DNA of 64,000 bases from a virus: IMG/VR virus record IMGVR_UViG_3300021420_000016, positions 32,001 to 96,000 of that record; one strand, written 5' to 3'. The notes below the pieces were generated by a model, which made no database searches, was not told where the DNA came from, and saw only the letters and a program-made list of their open reading frames with translations. Of this stretch, positions 34,463 to 48,845 are shown in pieces. How positions within the stretch are numbered: the first letter of the stretch is position 1; each line of letters opens with the position of its first letter. The position numbers and the translations under genes were made by a program.

Positions 34463-35983
34463 ATGCCGACCGAGATGCGACTAGCCCAGCGGGCGTTCCG
34501 GTTCGCCCTCGACCCCACCCCCCGGCAAGCCCGCATGTTCGCCTCCCATGCTGGCGGCGCCCGGTTCGCCTACAACTGGGGTAACGCGCAGATCATCGCC
34601 GCACTGGACGCCCGGCAAGCCGAGAAAGATGCAGGTGCCGAGCCGACGGTGAAGACGCCGTCCCATTTTGACCTGTGCAAGGCGTGGACGGCGTGGAAGA
34701 ACGAGCACGCCGCCGATCCCGAGCCCGCCGACGGTGAGCGGCGCACGAACACCGCCTGGGTCGCGGAGAACTTCGTCGGCACCTACCAGGCCGCGCTCCG
34801 GGACGCCGCGAAGGCGTGGTCGGACTTCTTCGCCTCCCGCTCAGGGAAGCGAAAGGGGCGCCGTCTCGGCCGACCCCGGTTCAAGAAGAAGGGCAAGTCC
34901 CGGGACTCGTTCCAGGTGCACGGCGGGACGCTGCGCATGGAGGACGCCGTGCACGTGACGCTGCCGAAGATCGGCACGATCACGGTGATGTCGGACGATT
35001 CCCTGCACCCGGCGATGCGGCGCAGCCGCGCCCGCGCCACCCACCTCGCGCCGCGGCACATGGGCAACCGGCGGCGCGCCCGGACGCTGTGGCGGGCCCT
35101 CCGGCGCGGCGGGGGCGCCCGGCTGATCCGCGGGACCGTCACGCGCGGCGCCGATGGCCTGTGGTGGCTGTCGCTGACCGCCGAAATCCCCCTGCAGGTG
35201 CGCGCGTCCCCGTCCCGCGCCCAGCAGGAGGGGGGGATGATCGGCGCCGACTTTGGGGTGCGCGAGGTCGCCACGTTCTCCAACGGGGTGACGATCCGCA
35301 ACTCGCGCCACCTGGAAGCCGCCCTGGCCGAGCTGCGGGCCGCGCAGAAGGCCCTGTCCCGGTGTCAGAAGGACTCCATGCGCCGCGAAAAGGCCAAAGC
35401 TCGCATTGGCGTAATCCACGCCGACGTGGCCCGGCTCCGCGAAACCGCCCTGCACCGGGCGACGACCGTCCTGGTCCGCCAGCACGACGTGATCGCAATG
35501 GAAGGCTGGGACGTGCAGCAGGTCATGCGCGGCGGCTCCAAGGACGTCCCCCGGCGGATCCGCCGGGACCGGAACCGGGCCCTGGCTGACACCGGGGTCG
35601 GGATGGCCCGGCAGATGCTTTCGTACAAGGGCCCGCAGATGGGTGCCATCGTGATGGTGACCGATCCGCAGGCCAAGACTGGGCGGACGTGCTCAGTGTG
35701 CAGGACGCCAAGAACCACGGCCCTGCCACCGCATCATGAGATGTTCACCAGCGATCAGTGCGGTCACGTCCTAGACCGGCGCCTCAACACGGCGCAGGCC
35801 CTCGCGGGCTGGGCCGCACAGGAGCTATCCAAGCGCGGGCCGGCGCCTGCCGGCCCGTCACGGCCTCGTGGAGGGAACGTAAGGCCTGCCGCTGACCGCA
35901 AGGTTGGCGGTGGGCGGTCCCCGGTGAAGCGAGCAGCCAGCACCCGGCTTGGCCGGGGTGAGCCTGGCACTCCCGGCGGGTAA
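34463..35983 (+). CDS. tnpB: TnpB/Cas12f-like RNA-guided RuvC protein, probably nuclease-inactive, adjacent to CRISPR array
   Basis: RAFRFALDPT..HAGGARFAYNWG, PRFKKK, RuvC-I IGADFG, RuvC-II AMEGW, CSVC..SDQC; RuvC-III reads DRRLNTA instead of DRDxNAA; AGGAGG RBS. Confidence 0.9.
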   Translation: MPTEMRLAQRAFRFALDPTPRQARMFASHAGGARFAYNWGNAQIIAALDARQAEKDAGAEPTVKTPSHFDLCKAWTAWKNEHAADPEPADGERRTNTAWVAENFVGTYQAALRDAAKAWSDFFASRSGKRKGRRLGRPRFKKKGKSRDSFQVHGGTLRMEDAVHVTLPKIGTITVMSDDSLHPAMRRSRARATHLAPRHMGNRRRARTLWRALRRGGGARLIRGTVTRGADGLWWLSLTAEIPLQVRASPSRAQQEGGMIGADFGVREVATFSNGVTIRNSRHLEAALAELRAAQKALSRCQKDSMRREKAKARIGVIHADVARLRETALHRATTVLVRQHDVIAMEGWDVQQVMRGGSKDVPRRIRRDRNRALADTGVGMARQMLSYKGPQMGAIVMVTDPQAKTGRTCSVCRTPRTTALPPHHEMFTSDQCGHVLDRRLNTAQALAGWAAQELSKRGPAPAGPSRPRGGNVRPAADRKVGGGRSPVKRAASTRLGRGEPGTPGG

Positions 35984-36064
35984 CTGCTGGGCGTCCCCAC
36001 ACTGCCCGGATCGGGCTGCCTAACTCAATAGCGGAATCGCTTACAAACGTACAGGTCAAGAAGT
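35984..36064 (+). promoter_or_regulatory. CRISPR leader
   Basis: AT-richer 81 bp ending CAGGTCAAGAAGT, resembling actinobacterial type I-E leader ends. Confidence 0.65.
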
Positions 36065-36521
36065 GTCCGGTCCGCGAGCGCGGGGGCGACGGGTCTTCAG
36101 CGGGAAGGTGCAGCTCTGCGAGCAGGTCCGGTCCGCGAGCGCGGGGGCGACGGGTGTGGGTACTCTGCGCGGGTTCAGCACAGGTTGTCCGGTTCGCGAG
36201 CGCGGGGGCGACGGGATTACGGTGCGATGGAAGCCGAAACCTTCAACGTCCGGTCCGCGAGCGCGGGGGCGACGGGTGCCCTCTCGCGACAGAGGTCCTC
36301 AGCACAGCGCGTCCGGTCCGCGAGCGCGGGGGCGACGGGGGAGTGCACCCGGAATGGCCCGCGCCAAGCGCGTCCGGTCCGCGAGCGCGGGGGCGACGGG
36401 GCGCCGAACTGCGAATTCGGTAGGGGCGTGTGGTCCGGTCCGCGAGCACGGGGGGGGCGACGGTGCCTCAGTCCAGCGCCGCCGCCGATGAAGCGGGCGG
36501 TCCGGTCCGCGGGCGCGGGGG
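36065..36521 (+). CRISPR. CRISPR array: 8 repeats (last two degenerate), 7 spacers, type I-E-like repeat
   Basis: 29-nt repeat GTCCGGTCCGCGAGCGCGGGGGCGACGGG at 36065, 36126, 36187, 36248, 36311, 36372, 36433 and 36500; unique spacers mostly 32 nt (61-bp period). Confidence 0.97.
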
Positions 36522-36571
36522 ATCCGGAACTTCTTGCCGATCCGGAACTTCATGTGGTTGGGTTGGTAGCC

Positions 36572-36848
36572 ATGCGCGGTGCGGAGCCGACCAAGCCGAT
36601 TGAATTAGCGCGGGTGGCCGACCAGCTCACCTTTCTCTACGTCGAGCACGCCCGGGTGGACCGCGACGTCAATGCCGTGACCGTTCAGCAGGTCTCCGGG
36701 ATCGCTCATGTTCCGGTGGCCACCCTCGCTGCGTTACTACTGGGCCCGGGAACCCGGATCACCCACGCCGCGATCACGCTGCTTGCCGGAAGCGGATGTA
36801 GCGTGCTGTGGGCCGGCGAACAAGGCGTGCGCCTTTATGCGGGTGCGG
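36572..36848 (+). pseudogene. cas1: type I-E Cas1, N-terminal ~90 aa only
   Basis: LTFLYVEHARVDRD..VP...LAALLLGPGTRITHAA..LL...GCSVLW.GEQGVRLYA; catalytic domain missing. Confidence 0.9.
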
Positions 36849-37043
36849 CTCGGCGTCGTCAAGGGCGGCGGGTCGGCGCTGATGGTGATCGCCGACCATG
36901 ACCGTGAGCAGGGATTCACGGTACTAGCTGCAGGTGAGGACCGGTGGGTTCCCGTCGACTTCGAGGGACTGGCCCTGATGGTCCGGCCGGCCCGGAGCGG
37001 CGCTCCCCCGGCCGTTTCGGATGGCCCTATGCAAGTCCGATAA
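36849..37043 (+). pseudogene. cas2: type I-E Cas2, C-terminal half, out of frame with cas1
   Basis: GSALMV..DREQGF..RWVPVDFEGLALMVRP. Confidence 0.8.
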
Positions 37044-37129
37044 TACATGTTATCGTTGGTGTCATGAGTAGCAGATCAGCAGGCCCCAGCGGCGCCTACA
37101 CATCTGGTGATGGCAAGCGGAAATCCTCC

Positions 37130-37348
37130 ATGGGTCACGCCCGTCACGCCTGGACGTGCCCCTGTGGCAAGACCGTCCGGGGCAACGGCGGCCGGGCGTC
37201 TCACCGCCGCGCCTGCGACATCTGGGCTGAGGAAGAACTAGCCCGGCTGAAGCGAATGCTCGCCGATGTTCCAGCCGCACAGTATGAGGTGCGGCGTCAA
37301 TGGGAGGCCCGGCGAGACCACCTGAAGGAAAGGCTTGGCCATGACTGA
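37130..37348 (+). CDS. small zinc-finger-like protein
   Basis: CPCG..GNGG..SH.R.C. Confidence 0.5.
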   Translation: MGHARHAWTCPCGKTVRGNGGRASHRRACDIWAEEELARLKRMLADVPAAQYEVRRQWEARRDHLKERLGHD

Positions 37349-38516
37349 GATCGCCCTGCAGGGCCAAGTCGTCCCGGCCGTCACGCAGCCCGGGGATCCC
37401 CGCAGCGAACTCCTCGCCAGGCTCACCGCCGCCTGGCTGACCCGGCAGGAATCCCCTCACACCCGCGTAGCGTACGAGCGCGATCTCCGCGACTGGCTCG
37501 CCTGGTGCGCCAGCCGGGAGGTTCATCCGCTGACCGCACGCATGAGCGACGTGGACGACTGGATCGCCGCACAGCGGGAGACGCCGGGCCGGCGCGGAGG
37601 CTCGGCTCCCAAGTACCCCGACGAGGCCATAGCTGCCGCATACGTGCGCTGGAAGGCCGGTAAAGCCCCCGGCGGCGTGCCTGTCTCCAAGGCCGCGCTG
37701 GCCCGGGAAATTGGCATGTTCCCCAATGCGCTCGCCAGCAGGTTCAGGAAACTGGAGCGCGACCTCACCGCAGGGACTCCGCAGGGCGCGTCCAAGCGGA
37801 GCATCGCCCGGCGCGTTTACGCCGTCCGGTCCTGGTACAAGTACCTGATCCGGAACACCCGAAGCGACCCGGTGCCGCTCATCGCCTACAATCCGGCGGA
37901 CACCGACGCCACTCCCAAGGTGAAGAAAGGCGACTCCCCCACCCGTGCGCTCAGCCGGGCCGAGGCCGACCGGCTCATCGCGGTCGCCGACGCCGACAGT
38001 CCCCGGTCCTCGGCGATCATCCGCCTCATGCTCACCAACGCTGACCGCCGCAGTTCTGTCGTGGCCATCGACATCCCCGACCTCGGCTGGGACCAGGGTC
38101 ACCGGACCGTTACCAGGCGCATCAAGGAAGGCCGGACAGTCCGTGACCCCATCCCCCCGCCGACCGCTCGCGCCATTGACGCCTACCTTGACTGGCGGGG
38201 CAACCCGCAAGACGGTCCATTGTTCGTCGCCAGTACCGGGAATCGGCTTAGTGACCAGCATCTGTACGACCTCGTGCCCCGGCTGGCCCGGGAAGCAGAT
38301 ATCCCGGACCCGGAAGAGGTCACCCCACACGGTCTGCGCGCCACCGCCATCACCGAAACGATCGTCGCCACCGGCGACATGTCCCTAGCCCAGGATCTCG
38401 CCCACCATCAGCACATGGACACCACGATGATCTACAACAAAGTCCGGGGGGATCTCGACCGCCACGCAGCGTATGTCCTCGCCACGCGGTACGGCGCCAA
38501 AGACGCGAGCGGCTAA
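37341..38516 (+). CDS. tyrosine recombinase (Xer/integrase-like) with internal HTH insertion
   Basis: SPHTRVAYERDL N-domain; R (NADRRS), K, TPHGLR, H and TTMIY catalytic motifs. Confidence 0.88.
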   Translation: MTEIALQGQVVPAVTQPGDPRSELLARLTAAWLTRQESPHTRVAYERDLRDWLAWCASREVHPLTARMSDVDDWIAAQRETPGRRGGSAPKYPDEAIAAAYVRWKAGKAPGGVPVSKAALAREIGMFPNALASRFRKLERDLTAGTPQGASKRSIARRVYAVRSWYKYLIRNTRSDPVPLIAYNPADTDATPKVKKGDSPTRALSRAEADRLIAVADADSPRSSAIIRLMLTNADRRSSVVAIDIPDLGWDQGHRTVTRRIKEGRTVRDPIPPPTARAIDAYLDWRGNPQDGPLFVASTGNRLSDQHLYDLVPRLAREADIPDPEEVTPHGLRATAITETIVATGDMSLAQDLAHHQHMDTTMIYNKVRGDLDRHAAYVLATRYGAKDASG

Positions 38517-38626: not shown

Positions 38627-40315
38627 TTACGCGGCCCGTTCGGCCGATGGCAACAGCCACGGCCAGGTCGCGTCGTGTGAGGCCTCCAGAATGGGGATCA
38701 GGCGGAAGGCGTTGTCGGTAAGCCCGCCCATGGTGTGCCGGTTCCCGCCACCCGAAGGCAGTCCCCCAGTCTTGTACCCGCCGAAGTTCCACAGGTACAC
38801 CGGCACGTGCCGCGGGATCAGGTCATCAATCCTGGTCGACGGCATGCCGCCCGCGAAGTGACAGTTCGACGGCAGGTACCCCGGGGAGGTCTGCTCGTCG
38901 GTGACGATCACCACCCGGTCGTGGTAACCGGCGCGGAAATGCTGCCGCACCGCCGTGGGGATGTCGGTCCCCCACTGCCCCGTGGTGAGCCGCTCCACCA
39001 GCTTGAGCACCGACTCGCCCTGGGTGAACCGCACGGCGGCGTTCACGCCGCGGCCGGTGTCCTGGCCCCAGAACTCCACCAGGTCGGCGTGGGCGGCGCG
39101 CAGGGCGATGGCTGCGGCGAACACGGCCGCCCCGTCGGCCCAGGACATGTCGGAGTGCTCGGACATGTTCTGGTGCCACATCGACGGCGACCGGTCCACC
39201 AGCACCAGCGTGCGGCCCGCCAGCGCGGGCACGTTCGCCAGCGAGTGGCCGAGGCCCTGCTCCAGCGGCCAGCCCCACCGCAGCGACGGGGCGTGCCGGT
39301 AGGCGGCGAGGAACCGGAACGGGAACAGCCGCGACCTGGCCACCCGGTCGGGGTCAGCCAGTTTCGCCGCGACCTCCGCCGCCACCGAGTCCGGGACGCC
39401 GGCCTGGTCGAAGTTCCGCAGGTTCTTCGCCAGCGCGCCCAGGCCCATCATCGGGATCGCCGCAGTCCACGCCTCGCGGGTCATCGGGCCCTGCAGCCAC
39501 CCGGCGAGGGCCTCCCACGTCATCCCCGCATCACGCAGATCCTGAGTTGCCTCCGGCCGGTTCAGCCACGCACGCCGTGCACCCTCCGGCATGGCCATCA
39601 GGGCGTGCCGGCGGCGGATCGTCGCCAGCACCTCCGGGACCGGGTTGCCCCGGTCGTGGCGCCGCTCGATCGCATACCGGTAAAGTGCTTCGCGCCACGT
39701 GCCGTACGCCCTGCGGTGATACCGCGGGTTGACGAGTTCGATAACGTCACCGAATCGCACTGCCGCCTCGTCGGTGTCGTACTTCAGCAGGGCGAACTCG
39801 TTGTAGAGGCGGTGGATCCCGTCGGCGAGGCCCCGCTTGAGCCCGATCGGCATCTTCCGGCCGTAGTTCGCCAGCCAGTAGGCGGTCAGCTCCCCCGGCT
39901 CGTCGGCGCGCTGCAGCACCGAGTCCACCACCGGCCGCGGGAACGTGGCGACGCCCACTTCCCGGCCCGTGCCGGCCTCGTCGCGGCGCGCCCAGGTGAA
40001 CTCCGCCGCGCCGATCACCGGCGCCAGGCGCAGGTTCCCGTCGCCGCGCAGCCACCCGAGCAGGCCGGCCGTCCATGCGGGGTCGGCGGCCGCCATCTCG
40101 CGGACGAGGTGACGGTAGCGCTTCACCCGGGCGTCGCGGCCCTCGTGGAACGCCCTCTCCCCCGGCAGGTTGCACGCCGCCAGGAGGAACAACTCGGACT
40201 GACCCTCGCGGGCATACCCGGGGGCACCCAAGGCGGTACGGCCGGACGGCCCCGGGCCGCTCACGACCGGGCTGGACGCGGCGGCACGGACAGGACCGCG
40301 GTTGAACTTGCTCAT
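38627..40315 (-). CDS. Ro60/Rsr-like TROVE domain RNA-binding protein with vWA domain
   Basis: MSKFN start, QRADEPGE, NLRNFDQAGV, SRLFPFRFLAAY, LVDRSPSM (MIDAS), VTDEQ. Confidence 0.92.
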   Translation of the reverse strand: MSKFNRGPVRAAASSPVVSGPGPSGRTALGAPGYAREGQSELFLLAACNLPGERAFHEGRDARVKRYRHLVREMAAADPAWTAGLLGWLRGDGNLRLAPVIGAAEFTWARRDEAGTGREVGVATFPRPVVDSVLQRADEPGELTAYWLANYGRKMPIGLKRGLADGIHRLYNEFALLKYDTDEAAVRFGDVIELVNPRYHRRAYGTWREALYRYAIERRHDRGNPVPEVLATIRRRHALMAMPEGARRAWLNRPEATQDLRDAGMTWEALAGWLQGPMTREAWTAAIPMMGLGALAKNLRNFDQAGVPDSVAAEVAAKLADPDRVARSRLFPFRFLAAYRHAPSLRWGWPLEQGLGHSLANVPALAGRTLVLVDRSPSMWHQNMSEHSDMSWADGAAVFAAAIALRAAHADLVEFWGQDTGRGVNAAVRFTQGESVLKLVERLTTGQWGTDIPTAVRQHFRAGYHDRVVIVTDEQTSPGYLPSNCHFAGGMPSTRIDDLIPRHVPVYLWNFGGYKTGGLPSGGGNRHTMGGLTDNAFRLIPILEASHDATWPWLLPSAERAA

Positions 40316-40370
40316 CCTCGCACGCCCCCTTTCGCTGGGGCTCCAGGCGGGAGAGGTAACCTTCATGAAT

Positions 40371-40513
40371 GACATGCCCGACAACGAATCGGCCCACGGG
40401 ACATAAGCGCTCTGCCAGTTGAGCTACGCCCCCAAAGTGGAGGCGACAGGACTTGAACCTGTAACCACTCGATCCACAATCGAAGTACCGCGAACCTGCA
40501 CTTCGGGCATGCC
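40371..40513 (-). ncRNA. Y RNA (YrlA-like) 1, T-arm before D-arm
   Basis: Closing stem CATGCCCGA..TCGGGCATG; GGTTCAAGTCC T-loop followed by TAGCTCAACTGGCAGAGC D-arm; directly upstream of Ro60 gene. Confidence 0.8.
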
Positions 40514-40530: not shown

Positions 40531-40673
40531 CCCCCCGACAACGAATCGGCGACGGTAACCGGGGCCGGATTCGAACCGGCGGCCTCCGCCCTTCCGGGCG
40601 GCGCTCTACCAACTGAGCTACCTCGCAAAATGGGTTGGCTGCGAGAAGTAACCGTTGCCTGCACTTCGGGGAG
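40531..40673 (-). ncRNA. Y RNA-like 2, D-arm before T-arm
   Basis: Same CCCGAAGTGCAGG and CCGATTCGTTGTCGGG termini; D-arm, GGAA-tetraloop stem, T-arm. Confidence 0.75.
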
Positions 40674-40696
40674 AAGTGCTTTATTTAGTTTATGTC

Positions 40697-40807
40697 CTTC
40701 CCGACAACGGATCGGCGGCGGCTGCGCGGGATTCGAACCCGCAACCTTCAGCTACTGTGACTGATTTCGATCCAATTCGAAGTAGCCGTCTCCTGCACTT
40801 CGGGAAA
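40697..40807 (-). ncRNA. Y RNA-like 3, T-arm only
   Basis: Same terminal motifs; GCGGGTTCGAATCCCGC T-arm. Confidence 0.7.
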
Positions 40808-40889
40808 GTATTCCCAGAGCCTAGCGAACCGGCAATGCGTGGCGCATCCCGTTTTCGCGTGACCCTGATCACAGCGCGAGCACCCTTTG

Positions 40890-40961
40890 AGTCGGCGGCG
40901 GGAATTGAACCCGCGTGCGCAGCTTTGCAGGCTGCTACCTCTGCCACTCGGCCACGCCGAC
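40890..40961 (-). tRNA. tRNA-Cys(GCA)
   Basis: Cloverleaf; anticodon loop CTGCAAA. Confidence 0.9.
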
Positions 40962-40965
40962 ACGG

Positions 40966-41039
40966 TGAGCGAGGCGGGATTCGAACCCGCAGCCTTCTTC
41001 TTAGGAGGAAGTTGCTCCATCCCGTTGAGCTACCCGCTC
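40966..41039 (-). tRNA. tRNA-Arg(CCT)
   Basis: Cloverleaf; loop CTCCTAA. Confidence 0.88.
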
Positions 41040-41110
41040 GCGGGAACGCCTGGCGACCGCTATGCGTGATCCTTTACCCCCACCGTTTGAAGCTGGGTCC
41101 AGGCGTTCGG

Positions 41111-41182
41111 CGTCCCCGGCGTGACTCGAACACGCGCGCACGGCTCCGGAGGCCACAGCTCTATCCACTGAGCTACGGGGAC
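41111..41182 (-). tRNA. tRNA-Arg(CCG)
   Basis: Cloverleaf; loop CTCCGGA. Confidence 0.85.
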
Positions 41183-41183
41183 T

Positions 41184-41268
41184 TGGTGGCAGGTCCAGGG
41201 TTCGAACCTGGGTAGGCTGAGCCGGCGGTTTTACAGACCGCTCCCTTTGGCCGCTCGGGCAACCTGCC
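41184..41268 (-). tRNA. tRNA-Tyr(GTA)
   Basis: Long variable arm; loop CTGTAAA; encoded CCA. Confidence 0.92.
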
Positions 41269-41269
41269 T

Positions 41270-41347
41270 TGGGGAGCCCGGCCGGATTTGAACCGGCGAC
41301 GACACGGACCACAACCGTGTGTTCTGCCTGGCTGAACTACAGGCTCC
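41270..41347 (-). tRNA. tRNA-His(GTG)
   Basis: Loop TTGTGGT; G-1; encoded CCA. Confidence 0.88.
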
Positions 41348-41348
41348 A

Positions 41349-41423
41349 TGGTGGGTGATGATGGGATCGAACCATCGGCCTCTGTCGTGTGAAGGCAGCG
41401 CTCTGCCACTGAGCTAAACACCC
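41349..41423 (-). tRNA. tRNA-Val(CAC)
   Basis: Loop TTCACAC; encoded CCA. Confidence 0.88.
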
Positions 41424-41511
41424 CTGCCAGGTCTTGATTTAAGTTCCGGGAATGCTTATTGTTTCCTTGCTACTAAAACCCTTAGCAAGTAGCACGGAAA
41501 GGGACACCTCA

Positions 41512-41655
41512 ATGGGCAGGAACAAAATCGTTGCAACTTGCGCCGCAATCTTTTTCGCGGCCGGGATGGCCGCCCCGGTTATCGCCGCAGCCACACCCGC
41601 CGTGCACGCCGTGGCAGACGGCAGTGGCGGCCCCGACATGTACCACCACAGCTGA
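41512..41655 (+). CDS. 47-aa secreted peptide precursor
   Basis: GAAAGGGA RBS; signal peptide followed by short polar tail DGSGGPDMYHHS. Confidence 0.65.
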   Translation: MGRNKIVATCAAIFFAAGMAAPVIAAATPAVHAVADGSGGPDMYHHS

Positions 41656-41716
41656 CCGTCCCCCAGGCCGTCTGCGGTCCCGAGCCCCCGGCGGGGCCGC
41701 AGACCCCTAAAATAAG

Positions 41717-41789
41717 TGCGCTCGGAGGGACTCGAACCCCCAACAAACTGCTCCGTAGGCAGTTGCTCTATCCGTTGAGCTACGGGCGC
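41717..41789 (-). tRNA. tRNA-Arg(ACG)
   Basis: Loop CTACGGA. Confidence 0.9.
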
Positions 41790-41800
41790 ATGGTATCGCG

Positions 41801-41873
41801 TGGGCGTACCTGGGATCGAACCAGGGATCCTCTGCCGTGTCGAGACAGCGCTCTGCCGCTGAGCTACACGCCC
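41801..41873 (-). tRNA. tRNA-Val(GAC)
   Basis: Loop TCGACAC (C33). Confidence 0.85.
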
Positions 41874-42382
41874 ACCGTTACTTCCAGGCCAATCTCGGCG
41901 GCCTGCCCAGCGATCTTCTCCGGCAGTTCCCAGCCGAGCCGGGCCAGCCGCTGCACTGCCTGCCGGGCACCATTCCCGGCCCGGCCCGCTAGGTTCACGT
42001 TCTCCAGTGCCTCGTTCATCATGTCCTCCATCCCCCGGTCGGTCACCATGAACGGAATCACGTTGAACAGCACGACCGCCGCCGCAGCGCCGGTGAGAGT
42101 CCACCGGCCGGTGGATGGCTGGACGCCGATCTCGCAATGGATATGCGCCTCGCCGCAATGCTCGGCGCAGCCCCGCTTGTCCCACTCCTTGCCCGGACGG
42201 GGAGGCCGCGGCTCCGCGTTGCTGTCGGTGAGCCGGCACAACTCCCTGATCACGCTCAGGTAAGAAGAGTCGACCCGCAGCACCAGTTGCGGCGTCGCCC
42301 GGGTGAGGTTGTCCTTCCGGTGGATGCGGCCCTGCATGTCCAAGATGGCCGCCATCCAGGCCAGCTTCTCGGCAGGGACCAT
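41864..42382 (-). CDS. LAGLIDADG-like protein
   Basis: KLAWMAAILDMQG helix; W.LTG..A..VL..VIPFM. Confidence 0.55.
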   Translation of the reverse strand: MVPAEKLAWMAAILDMQGRIHRKDNLTRATPQLVLRVDSSYLSVIRELCRLTDSNAEPRPPRPGKEWDKRGCAEHCGEAHIHCEIGVQPSTGRWTLTGAAAAVVLFNVIPFMVTDRGMEDMMNEALENVNLAGRAGNGARQAVQRLARLGWELPEKIAGQAAEIGLEVTVGV

Positions 42383-42408
42383 AAACCTCAGCCTAGCGCC
42401 GTGATACG

Positions 42409-42483
42409 CGGGACAGGCGGGATTCGAACCCGCGGCCTCCACCTTGACAGGGTGGCGAGCACTCCTGACTGCTCCACAGTCCC
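42409..42483 (-). tRNA. tRNA-Asp(GTC)
   Basis: Loop CTGTCAA. Confidence 0.9.
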
Positions 42484-42600
42484 ATGATTCCGGTCGCGGC
42501 CCCGCAGGCTATCGCGCCTCACCTGCGGTCAGCGGACGGCGAACCCGCCTATGTTTGCCCACCGGAACTGCACCAGCCAGATGCAGGTGTTGGAAAACGG

Positions 42601-42673
42601 CTCCCGAGGAAGGGCTCGAACCTTCAACCTGCCGGTTAACAGCCGGACGCTCTGCCGATTGAGCTACCCGGGA
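42601..42673 (-). tRNA. tRNA-Asn(GTT)
   Basis: Loop CTGTTAA. Confidence 0.9.
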
Positions 42674-42814
42674 ATGAGAAAGAAGCCCCGCCTACACGGA
42701 GCGCCCCGACGGCACTCCCGCCCTTATGCTGCCGTCGCAGCCCCATGGGCACTTGGTCCGCGGCCCGCGCGCCCTGCCTTCGGGTCAAGCCCGTACATCC
42801 TCAGCGGAACTTCG

Positions 42815-42888
42815 TAGCGGGGGGCGGATTTGAACCGCCGTCCTCTGGGTTATGAGCCCAGCGAGCTACCGAACTGCTCCACCCCGCG
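42815..42888 (-). tRNA. initiator tRNA-fMet(CAT)
   Basis: CGCGGGG start with unpaired C1; GGG/CCC anticodon stem; loop CTCATAA. Confidence 0.92.
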
Positions 42889-42976
42889 TCGCATGTGAGA
42901 TTTCCCGGCCACCTGGCCAACTCAGGTACCCACAACGGCCTCTCTACGGCTGACACTGATCACGCTACCACATTCG

Positions 42977-43052
42977 TGGTGGCTCCAGTCAGATTCGAAC
43001 TGACGCCGTCTCCTTGAAAGGGAGGTGACCTGGGCCGCTAGTCGATGGAGTC
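42977..43052 (-). tRNA. tRNA-Glu(TTC)
   Basis: Loop CTTTCAA; encoded CCA. Confidence 0.87.
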
Positions 43053-43053
43053 G

Positions 43054-43126
43054 TATCCCGGGAGGGATTCGAACCCCCGCCGCCACCTTGAGAGAGTGGC
43101 ATCCTAGGCCGCTAGACGACCGGGAC
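43054..43126 (-). tRNA. tRNA-Glu(CTC)
   Basis: Loop CTCTCAA. Confidence 0.9.
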
Positions 43127-43138
43127 ATGTACTTTACG

Positions 43139-43211
43139 TGCGCCGCCGCGGACTCGAACCGCGAGCCGTCTCCTTAGAGGGGAGCCGCTCTATCCATTGA
43201 GCTAGCGGCGC
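43139..43211 (-). tRNA. tRNA-Arg(TCT)
   Basis: Loop CCTCTAA (C33); Arg-type D-loop. Confidence 0.8.
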
Positions 43212-43394
43212 TGGCCGCGTCTCCGATTTCCCGGCGGACGGCTTGCTTCTCGCGTGCACGCTGAGCGCGCCGGCCGATCTCCTTCATACCGGGCTTGTAA
43301 CCCGGGTCGTGACCGGGGCAGCACCAATTCTGGTCGTGGGCACTGCGGGCCCGGCCGAGCATCCTTGCCATGGGGCGCATCCTCCGGTTAGGGG

Positions 43395-43895
43395 CTATGC
43401 CGCTTCGCGCAGAGTGCGCATTCCGCGAGTGCCAGGCGTCTCACCCCGGCGAACCCGGCCATCGTATTTGGCTTGGCGGCATAGACCGCAGCGGCATCCG
43501 CGACCGTATTCCGCTTGAGAACCGTGGCCCTTTCGCTGAAGTTGCGGCCACGGGCGTTCGACACGCTGCTCGGCTAGGTCAGTGACCGTTTTCCGGTGAT
43601 GATGCGCGCCACATAGAACTTGGCACCCTTCAAGCTCCTCAAGGAACTTCACTTCTGCGATCGACCATAGTCTCGCTAGGTCGATCTCTTTGGCGCGCCA
43701 ATCAATGTGGTCGATCTCCAGGTCGGCGGTGCCGCCGCACTCGGCACAGGCGCCGCCTAGCAGCGCGATGGCTCGATCCCGTCGTTCGTGGTAGCGCCGG
43801 AGCATGTAATCGCGCATGTAGCCGTTGTAGCAGTCGCGACATCTCTTGCCGTTGGCATACTCCCTGACGGGCCTGCCGCACTGGTTGCAACACAT
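43395..43895 (-). CDS. HNH endonuclease
   Basis: LGGACAECG..LEIDHID..EL..CQVLC.AHH..KT; HG...Y..GCRC.LC tail. Confidence 0.85.
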   Translation of the reverse strand: MCCNQCGRPVREYANGKRCRDCYNGYMRDYMLRRYHERRDRAIALLGGACAECGGTADLEIDHIDWRAKEIDLARLWSIAEVKFLEELEGCQVLCGAHHHRKTVTDLAEQRVERPWPQLQRKGHGSQAEYGRGCRCGLCRQAKYDGRVRRGETPGTRGMRTLREAA

Positions 43896-43912
43896 GTTCG
43901 AATTATATGCGG

Positions 43913-43986
43913 TGCCCCGCCTCGGATTCGAACCGAGAACCCGCGGATTAAAAGTCCGCTGCTCTAAGCCGTTGAGCTAGCAGGGC
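43913..43986 (-). tRNA. tRNA-Lys(TTT)
   Basis: Loop CTTTTAA. Confidence 0.9.
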
Positions 43987-44045
43987 GTGGGGCTGGGTAT
44001 TCGTACGACCTGTTTCTCGCGCATCGTTTCCTCCTTTCCGGGGGG

Positions 44046-44120
44046 TAGGCCGGGCGGGGGTCGAACCCGCACATCTTCCGCTTATAAGGCGGCTGCCGTC
44101 ACCCTGTTGGCCACCGGCCT
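44046..44120 (-). tRNA. tRNA-Ile(TAT)
   Basis: Loop CTTATAA; atypical D-arm. Confidence 0.75.
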
Positions 44121-44126
44121 CCTGAG

Positions 44127-44198
44127 TAGCGAGAGGGGATTCTGCCACCCCGGCCTCTCCGTTATGGGCGGAGCGCTCTCCTTCTGAGCTATCCCGCT
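44127..44198 (-). tRNA. tRNA-Met(CAT), elongator-type, atypical T-loop
   Basis: Loop CCCATAA (C33); T-loop TGGCAGAAT. Confidence 0.7.
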
Positions 44199-44213
44199 GG
44201 GTCCCCGTGGGGG

Positions 44214-44289
44214 TGGTGGGCCTAGGTGCTTTTGGGACACCGACCTCCCGGTTATCAGCCGGACGCTCTTACCTCTGAGCTACAGGCCC
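44214..44289 (-). tRNA. tRNA-Ile(GAT), atypical T-loop
   Basis: Loop CTGATAA; T-arm GGTGTCCCAAAAGCACC; encoded CCA. Confidence 0.75.
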
Positions 44290-44290
44290 T

Positions 44291-44382
44291 TGGAGGAGGG
44301 TGCGAGATTCGAACTCGCGAGACGAGTCCCCCCGTCTAGCCGTTTTCGAGACGGTGCCGTAGGCCACTCCGGTCAACCCTCC
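44291..44382 (-). tRNA. tRNA-Ser(CGA)
   Basis: Long variable arm; loop CTCGAAA; encoded CCA. Confidence 0.85.
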
Positions 44383-44387
44383 ACAAG

Positions 44388-44476
44388 CGGAGTGACAAGG
44401 ATTCGAACCTTGGAGGGGCTTGCGCCCCAACGGCGTTAGCAGCGCCGCGCCATAGGCCAGACTAGGCGACCACCCC
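44388..44476 (-). tRNA. tRNA-Ser(GCT)
   Basis: Long variable arm; loop CTGCTAA. Confidence 0.88.
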
Positions 44477-44554
44477 ATTGTGCGGTGGGCGGGGACAGGC
44501 GGACCCGCTGGTACGCGCAGACCAGCATGGCCGTGATCTCCCCGCCTCACTGCG

Positions 44555-44630
44555 TAGCGCTCGTCGGATTCGAACCGACACTGTCGCGGACCTGAACCGC
44601 GCGCCTCCTACCATGTTGGGCTAGAGCGCC
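44555..44630 (-). tRNA. tRNA-Leu(CAG), short variable arm
   Basis: Loop TTCAGGT. Confidence 0.8.
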
Positions 44631-44735
44631 TGGCCAGGGATCAGGCCGGTGCCGTCTGGCTCACGCTGCCTTCCCGGCACCGCCGGCTCCGCAGTCAGCG
44701 TGATGGGGATAACCGTGTGGCGCCTGATCCCTTAG

Positions 44736-44808
44736 AGCGGACGGCCGGGATCGAACCGGCGACTTCAACCTTGGCAAGGTTGCGCTCTGCCAACTGAGCC
44801 ACGCCCGC
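44736..44808 (-). tRNA. tRNA-Gly(GCC)
   Basis: Loop TTGCCAA. Confidence 0.92.
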
Positions 44809-44818
44809 ATGTATTTCG

Positions 44819-44890
44819 AGCGGAAGACGGGGATCGAACCCGCAACCCCGACCTTGGGAAGGTCGTGCTCTGCCATTGAGCCACTTCCGC
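44819..44890 (-). tRNA. tRNA-Gly(CCC)
   Basis: Loop TTCCCAA. Confidence 0.92.
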
Positions 44891-44891
44891 A

Positions 44892-44967
44892 TGGAGCCCG
44901 ACCGGGGAATTGAACCCCGCCTACGGCCTTACCAAGGCCGGGTGCTTACCGCTATCACTAGCCGGGC
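44892..44967 (-). tRNA. tRNA-Thr(GGT)
   Basis: Loop TTGGTAA; encoded CCA. Confidence 0.85.
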
Positions 44968-44971
44968 GAAG

Positions 44972-45042
44972 CTGGGGGAGCTGGGGTCGAACCAACGTTC
45001 CAGGGACCAAAGCCCCGTGTCCTGCCTTTAGACGATCCCCCA
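44972..45042 (-). tRNA. tRNA-Gln(TTG)
   Basis: Loop CTTTGGT. Confidence 0.85.
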
Positions 45043-45043
45043 T

Positions 45044-45121
45044 TGGAGCCGGCCATCGGGCTTGAACCGATCACCTGCCGCTTACAGGGCGGCTGCTCTG
45101 CCTGCGATGAGCTAGGCCGGC
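45044..45121 (-). tRNA. tRNA-Thr(TGT)
   Basis: Loop CCTGTAA (C33); encoded CCA. Confidence 0.85.
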
Positions 45122-45187
45122 GTGATCCTGGCAGGCACCGCAGGCGACCTTTGGCGCCGCAGTGAGGCCTGCCCTGCCAAGGAATCG

Positions 45188-45262
45188 TGTGCTCGGAGGG
45201 ACTTGAACCCTCAACATCCGGCACCTCGGGCCGACCTCTCTGCCACATTGGAGTACGAGCAC
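45188..45262 (-). tRNA. tRNA-Leu(GAG), short variable arm
   Basis: Loop CCGAGGT (C33). Confidence 0.78.
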
Positions 45263-45335
45263 TCAGTCAGTTCTTAGGCCAGCCGTATGGTGGGTATGAC
45301 TCATCCCAACGATACCGATCGCAGGGAGCGCCCCC

Positions 45336-45572
45336 GTGGATGAGCCCAATCTCACTCTCCCCGAAGCCCAGGAGCAACTACCGGCGATCTGCCAGCGGTT
45401 CGCTGCCGACCCAGGAACCCGGGATGCCGTTGTAGTGACAGACGCCGATGGCCCAGTGGCCGTGATCATCCCCTGGCGGAGGTACCGGGCCTGGGCCGGC
45501 CTCGGGGGGGAGACCCTGATGCCCGTTCACCAAAACGGCCGCCTGATAGCGGTTGTCCGGGACTGCGGCTGA
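45336..45572 (+). CDS. Phd/YefM-like antitoxin-domain protein
   Basis: L.EAQ.QL..I..VVVT..G.VAVII..Y pattern; no adjacent toxin. Confidence 0.55.
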   Translation: MDEPNLTLPEAQEQLPAICQRFAADPGTRDAVVVTDADGPVAVIIPWRRYRAWAGLGGETLMPVHQNGRLIAVVRDCG

Positions 45573-45577
45573 CTGGG

Positions 45578-45650
45578 AGCCCGATGCCGGGGTCGAACCG
45601 GCGACCTCCGCGGTACGAAGGCGGCGCTCTACCGACTGAGCTAACCGGGC
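45578..45650 (-). tRNA. tRNA-Thr(CGT)
   Basis: Loop TTCGTAC. Confidence 0.85.
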
Positions 45651-45802
45651 GTGGCTGCCCCGCGTACGCCGGTTCGGCGGGGCGCACCAGGGCGGGAGAA
45701 TCCGGGGCCGTGCGATCAGCCGCCCAAGATCGCCTCGATCTTCCATGTTCCCGGTGATCAACTCCGGGTGGGCCCCTGCGCCAGTGCCGGCCAGTTACCT
45801 TC

Positions 45803-46477
45803 TTAGGGATTCCTGGCCGCTGATGCAACCGGCGCTGCTCCCGGAGCTGGGGTCGAACCAACTACGGGACTTACCGCTTCCGGGGCTGGACTCGAACCAG
45901 CGAGGACAGGGGCCAGAACCCTGCTGGGGACGCCGCCGCCCCACCCGGAATCAAGTCGGCCCGAACGGATAGCCGTACGGATCCGATGACAATTAGCGCA
46001 AACTATGTCACACTTCGCGATCTCAGCAAGGATTCTGCTCCATGACCAGCGGGTAAGCACGGCACTTATGTTGCCCAGCTTGTCATCCCCATCCCTGTGG
46101 TCGTAATCCATAACACAAGGGGGGAACCGGCCACCGCAATCAGCGCACGGGACGTCTTTCAATGCGTCGAGTCGCTGCCGGTTCGCCTCGTATCGTTGCC
46201 GGTTGCGGTCCAGATATACCTGCTTGTTGTCGTTGTACCACCGTTGCTTCGCCGCCCGCTGTGCTTCTTTGTTACGGCCGGCACCGGTCCCTTTCTTCCA
46301 CCGGACCCCGAGAAAATGTGAAGTATCCAGGCCCAGCTCTGCGGCTACCGCCCTGATTCTGTGGTATGAACTACCTCCGTCAGCCTTAAGTCCAAGCGCT
46401 CGGGCTACCTGGCCCCAAGTCGTGGATTGAGTGATGGCATCAGCTAGATCGCCGTCGGACCATGACCTGGTTCTCAT
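45803..46477 (-). CDS. HNH endonuclease inserted in tRNA-Gln
   Basis: CADCG..MDYDH..EIAKCDIVCANCHRIRT; N-terminal DTSHF motif; lower GC. Confidence 0.85.
   Translation of the reverse strand: MRTRSWSDGDLADAITQSTTWGQVARALGLKADGGSSYHRIRAVAAELGLDTSHFLGVRWKKGTGAGRNKEAQRAAKQRWYNDNKQVYLDRNRQRYEANRQRLDALKDVPCADCGGRFPPCVMDYDHRDGDDKLGNISAVLTRWSWSRILAEIAKCDIVCANCHRIRTAIRSGRLDSGWGGGVPSRVLAPVLAGSSPAPEAVSPVVGSTPAPGAAPVASAARNP
45838..45864 (-). pseudogene. 3' half (T-arm and acceptor strand) of split tRNA-Gln(CTG)
   Basis: GTTGGTTCGACCCCAGC-TCCGGGA-G; pairs with TCCCGGA at 46555-46561. Confidence 0.8.
45877..45950 (-). tRNA. tRNA-Gln(CTG), atypical D-arm, inside the insertion
   Basis: TTCCGGG/CCCGGAA acceptor stem; loop TTCTGGC; GGTTCGAGTCC T-loop. 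Confidence 0.75.
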
Positions 46478-46517
46478 GCCTGCCAGTATACGGCAAGGTG
46501 TAGGGCTCTAGTCGCTT

Positions 46518-46561
46518 CGTCTGATCCAGAGTCAGGTGTCCTGCCATTGGACGATCCGGGA
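46518..46561 (-). pseudogene. 5' part (acceptor strand, D-arm, anticodon arm) of split tRNA-Gln(CTG)
   Basis: TCCCGGATCGTCCAATGGCAGGACACCTGACTCTGGATCAGA; no T-arm follows. Confidence 0.8.
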
Positions 46562-46565
46562 TTAG

Positions 46566-46647
46566 TGCGGGACGAGGGATTTGAACCCTCACGCCCTCTC
46601 GGGCACACGGACTTGAGCCGTGCGTGTCTGCGTTTCACCAGCCCCGC
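46566..46647 (-). tRNA. tRNA-Leu(CAA)
   Basis: Long variable arm; loop CTCAAGT. Confidence 0.85.
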
Positions 46648-46653
46648 TGGCCT

Positions 46654-47442
46654 TCAAAACGCCTTCCGCATTTCCTCGATCAGGGCCAGCGATTGCGGCG
46701 CGTTCAGGGCTATGCTTTGCAGCCAATCCGCTTGCGCGCGGAACCGGTCCAGGTCTGCGGTGTGGTCCTGGTACCTGTCTTCTCTCTCGGAGAAGACCAT
46801 CGGGGGCAGTTCGCCGGCGAAATCCAGGATCGTGAAGTTCGGCGCCGGGGAGGAGATCAGCGCCGCGCGGAACGGGACTACCCGCACGATGGCGCCTTCG
46901 CCGGCAAGGTTCAGGATGTGCCCGAGCTGGTCGGCCATGATGTCGGCGCCGGGGTGGCGCTGCAGGACCGCCTCATCCAGGAGGAACGTTGTGGGGATCT
47001 TCCCCACCAGTACCTGCCGGGCTTCACGCACCTGCGGGTACGGCCGGCCGGCGGCCTGGTCGTAGTTTGCGGTGCGCAGCAGCGCGGGGATTACGTCGCG
47101 GGCGAGGCAGACGAGGGACTCGGCGTTTTGCTCCAGGCTGAGGTACAGGACCGACCGGTCGTTGCTGATCGGCTCTATCCTCCACGGGTCTTTCTCCCGG
47201 CCGCGTCTCACGGCGGCAAGGAGCTCCGCCGCGGTGGCCTGGTCGGCGCCGTAGACGAGGCACATGGAGCGGACTGTGCGCCCGTCGGCGAGCCGGTCGC
47301 CGGTTTCGGTGCGGCTGACCGTGGCCATGGAGCACAGCAGTTCGGCTGCGGCCTGCTCGATCGTCATGCCCGCTGCGGTGCGCAGTTCGCGCAGGCGGGC
47401 GGCGAGTTTCATCTGGGCTACGGCGGGGCTGTCACTTGCCAT
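46654..47442 (-). CDS. XRE HTH plus DUF5753 domain regulator
   Basis: LRELR..AGMT.E.AA..L..S..TVSR.ETG.R; IP.LLRT..Y; LDEAVL.R; A.QL.H. Confidence 0.85.
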   Translation of the reverse strand: MASDSPAVAQMKLAARLRELRTAAGMTIEQAAAELLCSMATVSRTETGDRLADGRTVRSMCLVYGADQATAAELLAAVRRGREKDPWRIEPISNDRSVLYLSLEQNAESLVCLARDVIPALLRTANYDQAAGRPYPQVREARQVLVGKIPTTFLLDEAVLQRHPGADIMADQLGHILNLAGEGAIVRVVPFRAALISSPAPNFTILDFAGELPPMVFSEREDRYQDHTADLDRFRAQADWLQSIALNAPQSLALIEEMRKAF

Positions 47443-47487
47443 GTGGCACATATACCCTGCACCGGGCATTTTGCACGTAACCTATCG

Positions 47488-47559
47488 TGCGCCGCCAGGG
47501 GATCGAACCCCGGACCCGCCGATTAAGAGTCGGCTGCTCTACCACTGAGCTAGCAGCGC
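47488..47559 (-). tRNA. tRNA-Lys(CTT)
   Basis: Loop CTCTTAA. Confidence 0.92.
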
Positions 47560-47560
47560 C

Positions 47561-47634
47561 TGGAGCGGGTGAAGGGGATCGAACCCTCATGACCAGCTTG
47601 GAGGGCTGGGGCTCTGCCATTGAGCTACGCCCGC
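47561..47634 (-). tRNA. tRNA-Gly(TCC)
   Basis: Loop CCTCCAA (C33); encoded CCA. Confidence 0.88.
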
Positions 47635-47643
47635 ATTGACTTT

Positions 47644-47720
47644 TGGTGGCCACTCTCCGAGTCGAACGGAGGCCCTCTCACTTTTCAGGCGAGCGCTCAT
47701 ACCAACTGAGCTAAGCGGCC
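47644..47720 (-). tRNA. tRNA-Phe(GAA)
   Basis: Loop CTGAAAA; encoded CCA. Confidence 0.9.
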
Positions 47721-47724
47721 ATAG

Positions 47725-47796
47725 TCGGGATGGTCCGAACCGAACGGACGCCCTTCTGCTCCCAAAGCAGACGCTCTTCCACTGAGCTACACCCCG
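47725..47796 (-). tRNA. tRNA-Pro(TGG)
   Basis: Loop TTTGGGA. Confidence 0.85.
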
Positions 47797-47801
47797 AATC
47801 G

Positions 47802-47876
47802 TCGGGACAGACCGATTTGAACGGCCGGCCTCCGGCTCCCCGAGCCGGCGCTCTAACCAAGCTGAGCTATGCCCCG
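47802..47876 (-). tRNA. tRNA-Pro(GGG)
   Basis: Loop TCGGGGA (C33). Confidence 0.82.
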
Positions 47877-47877
47877 G

Positions 47878-48062
47878 TTACGCCACGTGTTTCCAGGTGC
47901 GCCCACACCGAATATCGCTGATCGTGGCCTTGTGAACTCCCAGCAGTTTGGCAAGGGCAATCCCCCGACGCATGAGCCGTTCGCGGCCAGCCACTTGGCT
48001 CTCCTGGCAGCGACCCACTCCCGCATGTACTTTCGCTGCCGCTCAGGATCGGCATAAGGCAT
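47878..48062 (-). pseudogene. internally deleted HNH endonuclease remnant
   Basis: MPYADPE.QRKY.REW..RR..W N-terminus joined out of frame to LAKLLGVHKATISDIR.GRTWKHV helix-turn-helix C-terminus. Confidence 0.65.
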
Positions 48063-48104
48063 GCGAACGGTATATCGCAGTTAGCCCTTTGACCTGTACT
48101 CTTG

Positions 48105-48182
48105 TGGTCGGGATGGGGTGATTCGAACACCCGGCCTCCTCGTCCCGAACGAGGCGCGCTGACCAAGCTGCGCCACATCCCG
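48105..48182 (-). tRNA. tRNA-Pro(CGG)
   Basis: Loop TTCGGGA; encoded CCA. Confidence 0.9.
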
Positions 48183-48414
48183 TTTGCCGGTTCCCTCCCA
48201 GGGCGTGCCGCCAGTGCAGGCAGAGAACGTTCCGTCCCCTTGCCGGAAAGAGGGACCCAGGCCCCTCGCGCGTCCGGGCGGGGAGACTTCCCCGGGGGCG
48301 GACTGTGATGCGCATTGCACGGCGGTCCCTGGTTGCCGGATCAGCCCTCCGCAGTTTGCTGTGTGGTACGTCACTTCTGCGAGCGATATCCGGCCCGGCT
48401 AGCGGGGACCGTAG

Positions 48415-48487
48415 TGGAGTTACAGGGACTCGAACCCTGGGCCTCCGCGTTGCGGGCGCGGCGCTCTCCCGGCTGAGCTATAACCCC
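48415..48487 (-). tRNA. tRNA-Ala(CGC)
   Basis: G3:U70 pair; loop CCCGCAA (C33). Confidence 0.85.
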
Positions 48488-48585
48488 TCAAGCGTGGTGG
48501 CCTCCGGTTGTTTGTCCCTTATTTAGCAGGGAGAGCCACGTATTCCCCGGAGGTTGCCCCCGGCGCCAGTCCGGGACCCCCCTTG

Positions 48586-48658
48586 TGGAGCTACGCGGAT
48601 TCGAACCGCGGACCCTCTCGATGCCATCGAGATGCTCTGCCAACTGAGCTATAACCCC
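48586..48658 (-). tRNA. tRNA-Ala(GGC)
   Basis: G3:U70 pair; loop ATGGCAT. Confidence 0.9.
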
Positions 48659-48845
48659 ATCTGGGCGGTTAGAACTGCCGCTCCCCCACTGGCCCAGAGT
48701 GGGCCGGCGGGATCATCGACGGGCAGAGACCACCCACGCGGGACTTATGGCCGCCCGCCTTTTCGTTTGGTGCTCACGCTATGCAAGTTTCAACCACCGG
48801 GCGGGTTCACCAGCCTTACCTCTCGGTCGCGCTGGTGCCGCTTCG

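Follow-up and report, generated by a model that had tools for sequence, protein, structure and literature searches.

A phage-borne cassette joins a Cas12n-like effector with an altered RuvC site to a type I-E-derived CRISPR array

The DNA analysed here, called the window throughout, is a stretch of 64,000 nucleotides (nt) that covers bases 32001-96000 of a 154,048-bp virus record of IMG/VR (IMGVR_UViG_3300021420_000016) rated 98% complete. Its G+C content is 66-70%, and the carrier is a 154-kb phage of high-GC bacteria. Within the window lies a compact CRISPR cassette (clustered short palindromic repeats, regularly interspaced), in which a gene for a TnpB-fold effector related to Cas12n is followed by an array of type I-E-like repeats and by remnants of cas1 and cas2. 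The features of the cassette are as follows.

34463..35983, plus strand: Cas12n-like (TnpB-fold) effector gene of 506 amino acids (aa), from its open reading frame (ORF), Pfam, profile searches, alignment and structure prediction.
35249-35251, plus strand: RuvC-I D263, kept catalytic residue.
35501-35503, plus strand: RuvC-II E347, kept catalytic residue.
35780-35782, plus strand: RuvC-III R440, replacing Asp (codon CGC, motif DRRLNTA).
35863..35998, plus strand: putative scaffold of omegaRNA origin that resembles a trans-activating CRISPR RNA (tracrRNA) and overlaps the gene 3' end; from RNAalifold, with an approximate 5' boundary.
35992-35998, plus strand: anti-repeat CGTCCCC, which ends the scaffold and is predicted to pair with repeat nt 18-24 (GGGGGCG).
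35999..36064, plus strand: conserved segment between anti-repeat and first repeat, with motif CTAACTCAATAGCGG and ending CAGGTCAAGAAG (alignment A2).
36065..36528, plus strand: CRISPR array of eight 29-nt repeats and seven spacers, consensus GTCCGGTCCGCGAGCGCGGGGGCGACGGG.
36572..36838, plus strand: type I-E cas1 remnant, residues 1-89 only, with 81% identity by tblastn to the intact Cas1 of a related locus (L010).
36834..36956, plus strand: type I-E cas2 remnant, residues 42-82, out of frame with the cas1 piece.

The first repeat starts 81 nt past the effector stop codon. Six of the repeats are near-perfect and the two distal ones degenerate; the spacers measure, in order, 32, 32, 32, 34, 32, 32 and 38 nt. 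The repeat was found nowhere else in the phage genome, and the array is therefore far beyond chance. Its geometry is that of type I-E systems (29-nt repeat, 32-33-nt spacers, 61-nt period), and the genes behind it point the same way, as the cas1 remnant matches TIGR03638, the model for type I-E Cas1e (E 6e-26), and the ORF at 36708-37043, which contains the cas2 remnant, matches Pfam Cas2 CT1978 with 27.2 bits (cut-off 24.7). The cas1 and cas2 pieces are fused by a deletion. Intact cas1-cas2 genes stand 3' of the array in L010, whose effector is 81% identical to that of the window, and on the contig of the homolog P0006, while truncation of the pair has occurred independently in the window and in locus L007.

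The effector matches the Pfam families HTH_OrfB_IS605, OrfB_IS605 and Cas12f1-like_TNB, and scores 171 bits against the NCBIfam model guided_TnpB (above the cut-off of 100) and 257 bits against IS607_TnpB (below the cut-off of 350). Its catalytic triad reads D263-E347-R440, D-E-R for short, in place of the D-E-D triad of Cas12n. The same D-E-R combination occurs in 120 of the 120 top homologs listed, among which D263 and E347 are invariant. These two residues are also kept in neighbouring D-E-Q and D-E-N lineages, and the RuvC region of alignment A1 holds no alternative invariant acidic residue. Relatives that have lost all three residues (NQG, KEN and HYG) are found in the same phylogenetic tree, described below, and were graded as fully dead. 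R440 as a recent point mutation or a read error was ruled out, since the Arg is invariant across the clade. The zinc finger shows the pattern C-C-S-C, with one Cys gone, and an Arg-rich insertion at about residues 178-215 is confined to the closest subclade. The core of the protein has a ratio of nonsynonymous to synonymous substitution rates (dN/dS) of 0.14-0.25 across comparisons, and of 0.14-0.18 against the closest relatives, which indicates that it is under purifying selection. The C-terminal tail (residues 460-506) is disordered in the AlphaFold model, with a pLDDT (predicted score in the local distance difference test) <50. In the codons of this tail dS is halved and dN/dS is 0.5-0.8, which, taken together with the low pLDDT, suggests that these codons are constrained as RNA and not as protein.

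These results bear out every element of what the original prediction, an earlier reading of the same DNA, had described at the locus, namely a 506-aa TnpB-family protein ending 81 nt before an eight-repeat array, in which the RuvC-I Asp and RuvC-II Glu are kept, the RuvC-III Asp is truly replaced and not misread, one zinc-finger Cys is Ser and the Arg-rich insertion is real. The cas1/cas2 remnants that it had placed after the array were recovered by both family models and by the alignment to L010 Cas1, and the class 1 (I-E) origin that it had proposed for the repeats and the adaptation module agrees with the repeat geometry, the Cas1e and Cas2 matches and the likeness of the repeats to those of host I-E systems. 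It had also noted the lack of tnpA and of Cascade or cas6 genes in the window. This extends to the full 154-kb record, in which neither a TnpA of the Y1 or serine type nor a Cas7e or Cas6e was found (cas3 was given no separate search) and the effector gene occurs in a single copy.

In searches with the profile of alignment A1 the best relative of solved structure was PDB 9J09 (E 1.4e-59), which is RdCas12n of type V-N, formerly V-U4/C2c9 (PMC12216341). Cas12n proteins measure 400-700 aa, have a disordered C-terminus and a tracrRNA that overlaps the ORF, recognise a 5'-AAN protospacer-adjacent motif (PAM) and cleave double-stranded DNA (dsDNA) with a D-E-D triad, formed in RdCas12n by D287, E386 and D484 (PMC12216341, PMC11641405). 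By BLASTP the effector is 26% identical to the RdCas12n-like protein P0225 (E 3e-39), and its identity to P0139, an array-linked D-E-D relative, is 33%. Among 1.84 billion representative proteins, 1570 matched the profile at E ≤1e-30, and these include approximately 33 D-E-R clusters at 50% identity. In a FastTree phylogeny of 150 representatives, from which AcCas12n was left out, the D-E-R clade is monophyletic with a support of 0.995 (39 tips and one D-E-T protein), has the D-E-Q and D-E-N lineages as sisters, and joins together with them the clade of P0225, P0139, P0145 and P0138 at a support of 0.89. On the contigs of the D-E-D proteins P0139 and P0145 and of the D-E-G protein P0138, the CAGG..GAAG junction is the same as in the D-E-R clade and I-E-like repeats follow it. 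Comparison of these contigs indicates that an I-E-like array and an omegaRNA-like leader are traits of the wider Cas12n assemblage and, given that D-E-D relatives share junction and repeats, array capture is older than both the Asp-to-Arg change and the phage that now carries the cassette. By its sequence the effector is thus a member of a derived, Arg-bearing branch of Cas12n. The independent, early transition from TnpB to Cas12 that had been proposed for this locus does not stand, because the gene is nested in a monophyletic clade that groups with Cas12n and whose D-E-D relatives have the same junction and repeats. In the D-E-Q sister lineage, P0182 (L280:4033-6304) sits, as does its lineage, in phage-like contigs of 130-160 kb, and downstream of its gene irregular 36-nt repeats (CTCGCAACGAAGTT..GGGCGATGCCAC) recur about every 72 nt over some 2 kb, unlike the I-E-like type of array.

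The association between gene and array was followed through 250 related loci, taken from viral contigs as well as from genomes and metagenomes, each with its family-profile score and RuvC-III residue. The 29 loci with Arg form one group, in which no score is below 508 bits, and none of the 212 loci with Asp exceeds 333 bits. In nearly all of the Arg loci I-E-like repeats begin 55-105 nt past the stop codon. A strict script that demands at least three repeats passes 17 of these 29, most others having the first repeat at a contig end or a degenerate array, and only three distinct Arg loci (L098, L019 and L153) are truly without an array. Among the 212 Asp-type loci there is no genuine array, a single repeat hit 964 nt downstream being judged spurious. 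The linkage persists down to 43% protein identity between loci with unrelated flanks, and as tblastx between loci found nothing conserved outside the cassette, the conserved unit is the gene, the spacer region, the array and sometimes cas1-cas2, and not a syntenic phage block. Close homologs do not generally lack arrays, so that the homolog check suggested with the original prediction came out in favour of a conserved linkage across divergent loci. Repeat sequences vary by locus and spacers are never common to two related loci, which points to array turnover.

Two side observations concern these arrays. The array-less D-E-R members, which are L098/L179/L180 (on a 160-kb IMG/VR contig), L019 (Jiangella) and L153, are orphan effectors, and in L098 the scaffold is kept as far as the CTCAACAG motif and then diverges. 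The 17-repeat array of L166:5835-6841, in a 164-kb metagenome contig, contains duplicated spacers, with spacer 7 identical to spacer 9, spacer 8 identical to spacer 13 and a near match between spacers 4 and 11; repeat-spacer blocks have thus been duplicated within the array.

The 3' end of the effector gene carries the signature of a structured RNA. Across 16 loci RNAalifold predicts 41 consensus pairs within the last approximately 40 codons, 20 of them with compensatory changes, and a hairpin of GNRA type pairs 35973-35979 with 35984-35990, its GTAA loop holding the stop codon. Directly downstream, the anti-repeat and the repeat change together: in a test of 18 loci 96.8% of the cells were paired, with changes on both sides in 12 of 14 pairs, a result reached by none of 500 shuffles, and sliding the partner by 1-3 columns cut the pairing to 33-55%. 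In an unbiased scan, in which all 7-nt windows of the 235-nt upstream region were compared with all repeat windows, the anti-repeat duplex ranked first (96.4% paired, five of seven positions compensatory). RNAduplex placed the pairing between the repeat and the upstream region, which are GC-rich, at inconsistent sites, and its predictions were not used. Comparison across loci thus shows that the gene 3' end and the next approximately 15 nt encode a structured, omegaRNA-derived putative tracrRNA, and that its 7-nt anti-repeat is predicted to pair with nt 18-24 of each repeat. The proposal that the protein is tied functionally to the array is supported by this covariation as well as by the linkage amid unrelated flanks. 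An insertion sequence that landed by chance beside an orphan array was ruled out by that linkage, by the covariation, by the single copy of the gene and by the absence of TnpA.

The stretch of about 80 nt from the stop codon to the first repeat is conserved in all relatives, and the segment between anti-repeat and array includes a small covarying hairpin (36004-36008 with 36012-36016). In the Asp-type TnpB relatives the omegaRNA ends in ...CAGGTAACGG and is followed by the guide; in the D-E-R clade the homologous ...CAGGTCAGGAAG stands directly before repeat 1, and the repeats themselves end in GACGG(G). Alignment of the two indicates that the segment at 35999-36064 is homologous to the omegaRNA 3' end of the Asp-type relatives. 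It probably serves as the CRISPR leader, and the anti-repeat and the small hairpin appear to have been inserted into an omegaRNA that is intact in other respects.

Taken together, we consider it about 60% probable that the whole package is a phage-borne miniature type V-N system for DNA binding guided by tracrRNA:crRNA (CRISPR RNA) pairs, without canonical cleavage. The parts of this reading differ in strength: it is very probable that an effector of the Cas12n lineage uses this array, and we lean, with less assurance and from the residues of its active site, towards an effector that does not cut DNA. Comparison shows that the array descends from type I-E repeats and was filled by a type I-E Cas1-Cas2 pair. 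In the mechanism that we propose the effector would load tracrRNA:crRNA pairs and recognise DNA beside a 5' A-rich PAM, as Cas12n does. Since every member of the clade has an Arg at the RuvC-III position, and Arg cannot hold a catalytic metal, the protein would lack the normal two-metal mechanism for cutting DNA, catalysis of this kind being expected to be abolished by an Arg in the RuvC site. Binding would then probably block transcription or replication of the target, in the way of Cas12m and Cas12c. As D263 and E347 are invariant they probably still have a role, for example in guide-RNA processing. The position beside an integrase gene suggests that the cassette probably acts for the phage or prophage against competing mobile elements, and any new spacers in the phage of the window would by now depend on the type I-E Cas1-Cas2 of a host.

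Several points weigh against this reading. The node that ties the clade to Cas12n is moderately supported (0.89 in FastTree, with AcCas12n not in the tree), and the repeat:anti-repeat duplex is only 7 bp long. Altered RuvC sites can keep activity, as has been argued for conserved rearrangements (Altae-Tran et al. 2023, PMC10691335), and the invariance of D263 and E347 is equally compatible with a retained catalytic role. The broken cas1/cas2 genes and the two degenerate repeats mean that the copy in the window may be losing function. Finally, there was no protospacer for any spacer searched, so that the PAM, the target class and DNA as the substrate have no protospacer support, and neither does the multi-guide repression of host genes or rival elements that the original prediction had put forward.

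Roughly 130 spacers were gathered over the loci, and the spacer searches covered several sources. No spacer matched its own genome, either in the 154-kb phage or in any fetched locus. Five arrays gave no match in the phage collection, the array of the window none in plasmids and the three leader-proximal spacers none in IMG/VR, and comparison with 401 genomes of the order that contains the L020 genome, two of them unpublished and used for no claim, returned weak GC-rich noise only. As an isolated observation, spacer 3 of L010 (L010:4505-4536) shares 16 contiguous nt with the effector gene on the opposite strand at L010:3831-3846, and likewise in L009, L016 and L097; this match is probably due to chance in GC-rich sequence, and could also be a trace of targeting between rival cassettes.

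The main rival to guided binding without cleavage holds that D-E-R is a rearranged, still active nuclease site, which would cut or nick DNA, or cut RNA, in a non-canonical manner and so provide conventional interference. The invariance of Asp and Glu in the listed homologs and in the D-E-Q and D-E-N lineages is what such a site would show, the relatives in the tree that are fully dead lack all three residues and not just one, and conserved RuvC-III substitutions such as the Asp-to-His of RIIIr-4 may keep activity (PMC10691335). However, an Arg is unable to coordinate a metal ion, no other invariant acidic residue of the RuvC region is available to replace the lost Asp, and the Asp and Glu could be kept for RNA processing alone. 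We regard an active D-E-R site as unlikely, and give it around one chance in five.

That the copy in the window is a decaying, inert remnant, with adaptation lost and the array unused, is improbable. Its cas1 and cas2 are out-of-frame fragments, the two distal repeats are degenerate, a zinc-finger Cys has been lost and array-less orphans exist in the clade; but the effector gene is intact and its core shows a low dN/dS against the closest relatives, the anti-repeat still matches six near-perfect repeats, and degenerate terminal repeats are normal in live arrays.

The relation to host type I-E systems can be judged from the genome that holds L020 (Streptosporangium violaceochromogenes), which has two complete-looking I-E (Cascade) loci whose repeats form perfect hairpins (GGACCATCCCCGCGTGCGCGGGG...). 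The effector-linked repeat of this genome occurs only beside the effector and differs from both Cascade-linked repeats, and effector-linked repeats in general have a mismatched stem and a weaker hairpin than canonical I-E repeats. An array serving a host I-E Cascade, alone or with the effector, next to a gene left by an insertion sequence that landed in the leader, would account for the clearly I-E-derived repeats with their 61-nt period and for the full I-E systems that hosts of related genes can carry, but is very improbable in view of the linkage down to 43% protein identity, the covariation of the anti-repeat with the repeat, the distinct repeat and weaker hairpins just described, and the absence of TnpA and of a second gene copy in the phage. 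C2c9 systems have been described as being without an adaptation module and as sharing PAMs with co-resident type I systems (bioRxiv 10.1101/2024.04.09.587696), and the cis-encoded I-E Cas1-Cas2 of the phage subclade fits and extends that picture.

A wider proposal is that the D-E-R clade as a whole is a distinct, natural non-cutting derivative of Cas12n, a compact DNA binder guided by RNA that still adapts via its own I-E Cas1-Cas2 and is carried by temperate actinophages beside the integrase to silence rival phages or plasmids, or host genes. We put this forward tentatively, as a possibility to which we would give a little under even odds.

The phage also encodes a DnaB-like helicase, an HNH endonuclease and a tyrosine integrase, and the cassette adjoins the lysogeny module. 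An integrase near the cassette is also found in loci L007, L009 and L015. In the window it is given as context and is not counted in the CRISPR system:

37335..38516, plus strand: tyrosine integrase (Pfam Phage_integrase and Phage_int_SAM_1).

Directly 5' of the integrase and overlapping its start, a small ORF with Cys and His residues is seen in the raw sequence at 37066-37345 (plus strand), which may encode an excisionase-like protein or a zinc-ribbon regulator. Between the integrase and a tRNA cluster lies a 585-aa ORF with a TROVE (Ro60-like) domain at 38627-40384 (minus strand), overlapped by a probably spurious plus-strand ORF of 545 aa; Ro60 proteins usually act with a small Y RNA. The cluster has 38 tRNA genes at 40557-48918 (minus strand), in which nearly every amino acid is represented. 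ARAGORN assigns the gene at 40557-40627 a two-base anticodon, and calls the gene at 44295-44382 tRNA-Ser(cga), whereas its Rfam score is just at the threshold for tRNA-Sec. The Rfam search found tRNAs only, a scan for consensus promoters and terminators gave nothing useful, and the phage collection, searched at near-identity, contained no relative of the locus.

In the cassette a single step of type V evolution can be followed in unusual detail, with an omegaRNA-like scaffold that is nearly whole and a short anti-repeat inserted into it, and with a class 2 effector to which an array and adaptation module of class 1 (I-E) have been connected. Cas12n thereby gains a large, mostly metagenomic and partly phage-borne branch whose nuclease site is altered systematically. 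Should the protein bind its targets and leave them uncut, it would be a natural and very small programmable DNA binder (a core of about 455 aa) with an A-rich PAM, a class rare among Cas12 proteins. Phages with such a ready-made 'dCas12n' would be targeting DNA adaptively without destroying it, and the clade would deserve a type V subtype or variant of its own. The principle is not new, as Cas12n, the non-cutting Cas12m, Cas12c and Cas12k, and phage-borne CRISPR systems are already known. We found no literature description of the D-E-R clade of Cas12n or of a Cas12n with its own I-E Cas1-Cas2, although a V-U label may already exist for the clade.

Among known systems, type I-E has the same 29-nt repeat, 32-33-nt spacers and 61-nt period, the same Cas1e and Cas2 (CT1978) and repeats akin to those of the host I-E loci; the cassette differs from it in having no Cas7e or Cas6e in the phage, a weakened repeat hairpin and a repeat 3' end (GACGGG) that resembles the omegaRNA terminus. 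TldR proteins likewise derive from TnpB, keep a guide RNA and have an impaired RuvC site, but they have one fixed omegaRNA guide for a linked host promoter, whereas here the guides come from an array that turns over and the change affects just one of the three catalytic residues, which sets the effector apart from TldRs. With TnpB of IS200/IS605/IS607 (ISDra2 TnpB, 8H1J/8EXA) it shares the fold, the domain order and a homologous scaffold RNA, including a segment before the first repeat that matches the omegaRNA 3' end of the Asp-type relatives. Unlike these TnpBs it has no TnpA, exists in one copy, has a multi-spacer array where a single guide would be, carries the anti-repeat and hairpin inserted into the scaffold and has lost the RuvC-III Asp. 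Cas12m (V-M) and Cas12c (V-C) are comparable in that crRNA-guided DNA binding, as proposed here, silences without cleavage while the RuvC site is partly kept (PMC12669027, PMC10691335). The effector is not a member of Cas12m, as its profile matches the Cas12m structures weakly (E 1.5e-6 and 1.9e-4) and TnpB and Cas12n far better, and Cas12m itself works without a tracrRNA and with a T-rich PAM.

Compared with Cas12n, the RuvC-III Asp (D484 in RdCas12n) is Arg throughout the clade, which makes the defining dsDNA cleavage doubtful; identity to RdCas12n-like proteins is only 26%; many D-E-R members are phage-borne; and close relatives of the effector carry their own I-E cas1-cas2, whereas Cas12n/C2c9 has been described without an adaptation module (bioRxiv 10.1101/2024.04.09.587696). 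In the remaining respects it resembles Cas12n: a TnpB-sized effector (AcCas12n also has 506 aa) from the actinobacterial world, with an insertion in the WED domain and a disordered C-terminal tail, an array directly downstream, a tracrRNA, predicted here from covariation, that overlaps the 3' end of the ORF, and a place in the same clade of the tree, in line with its profile match to the RdCas12n structures (PDB 9J09/9UDI; E 1.4e-59 for 9J09).

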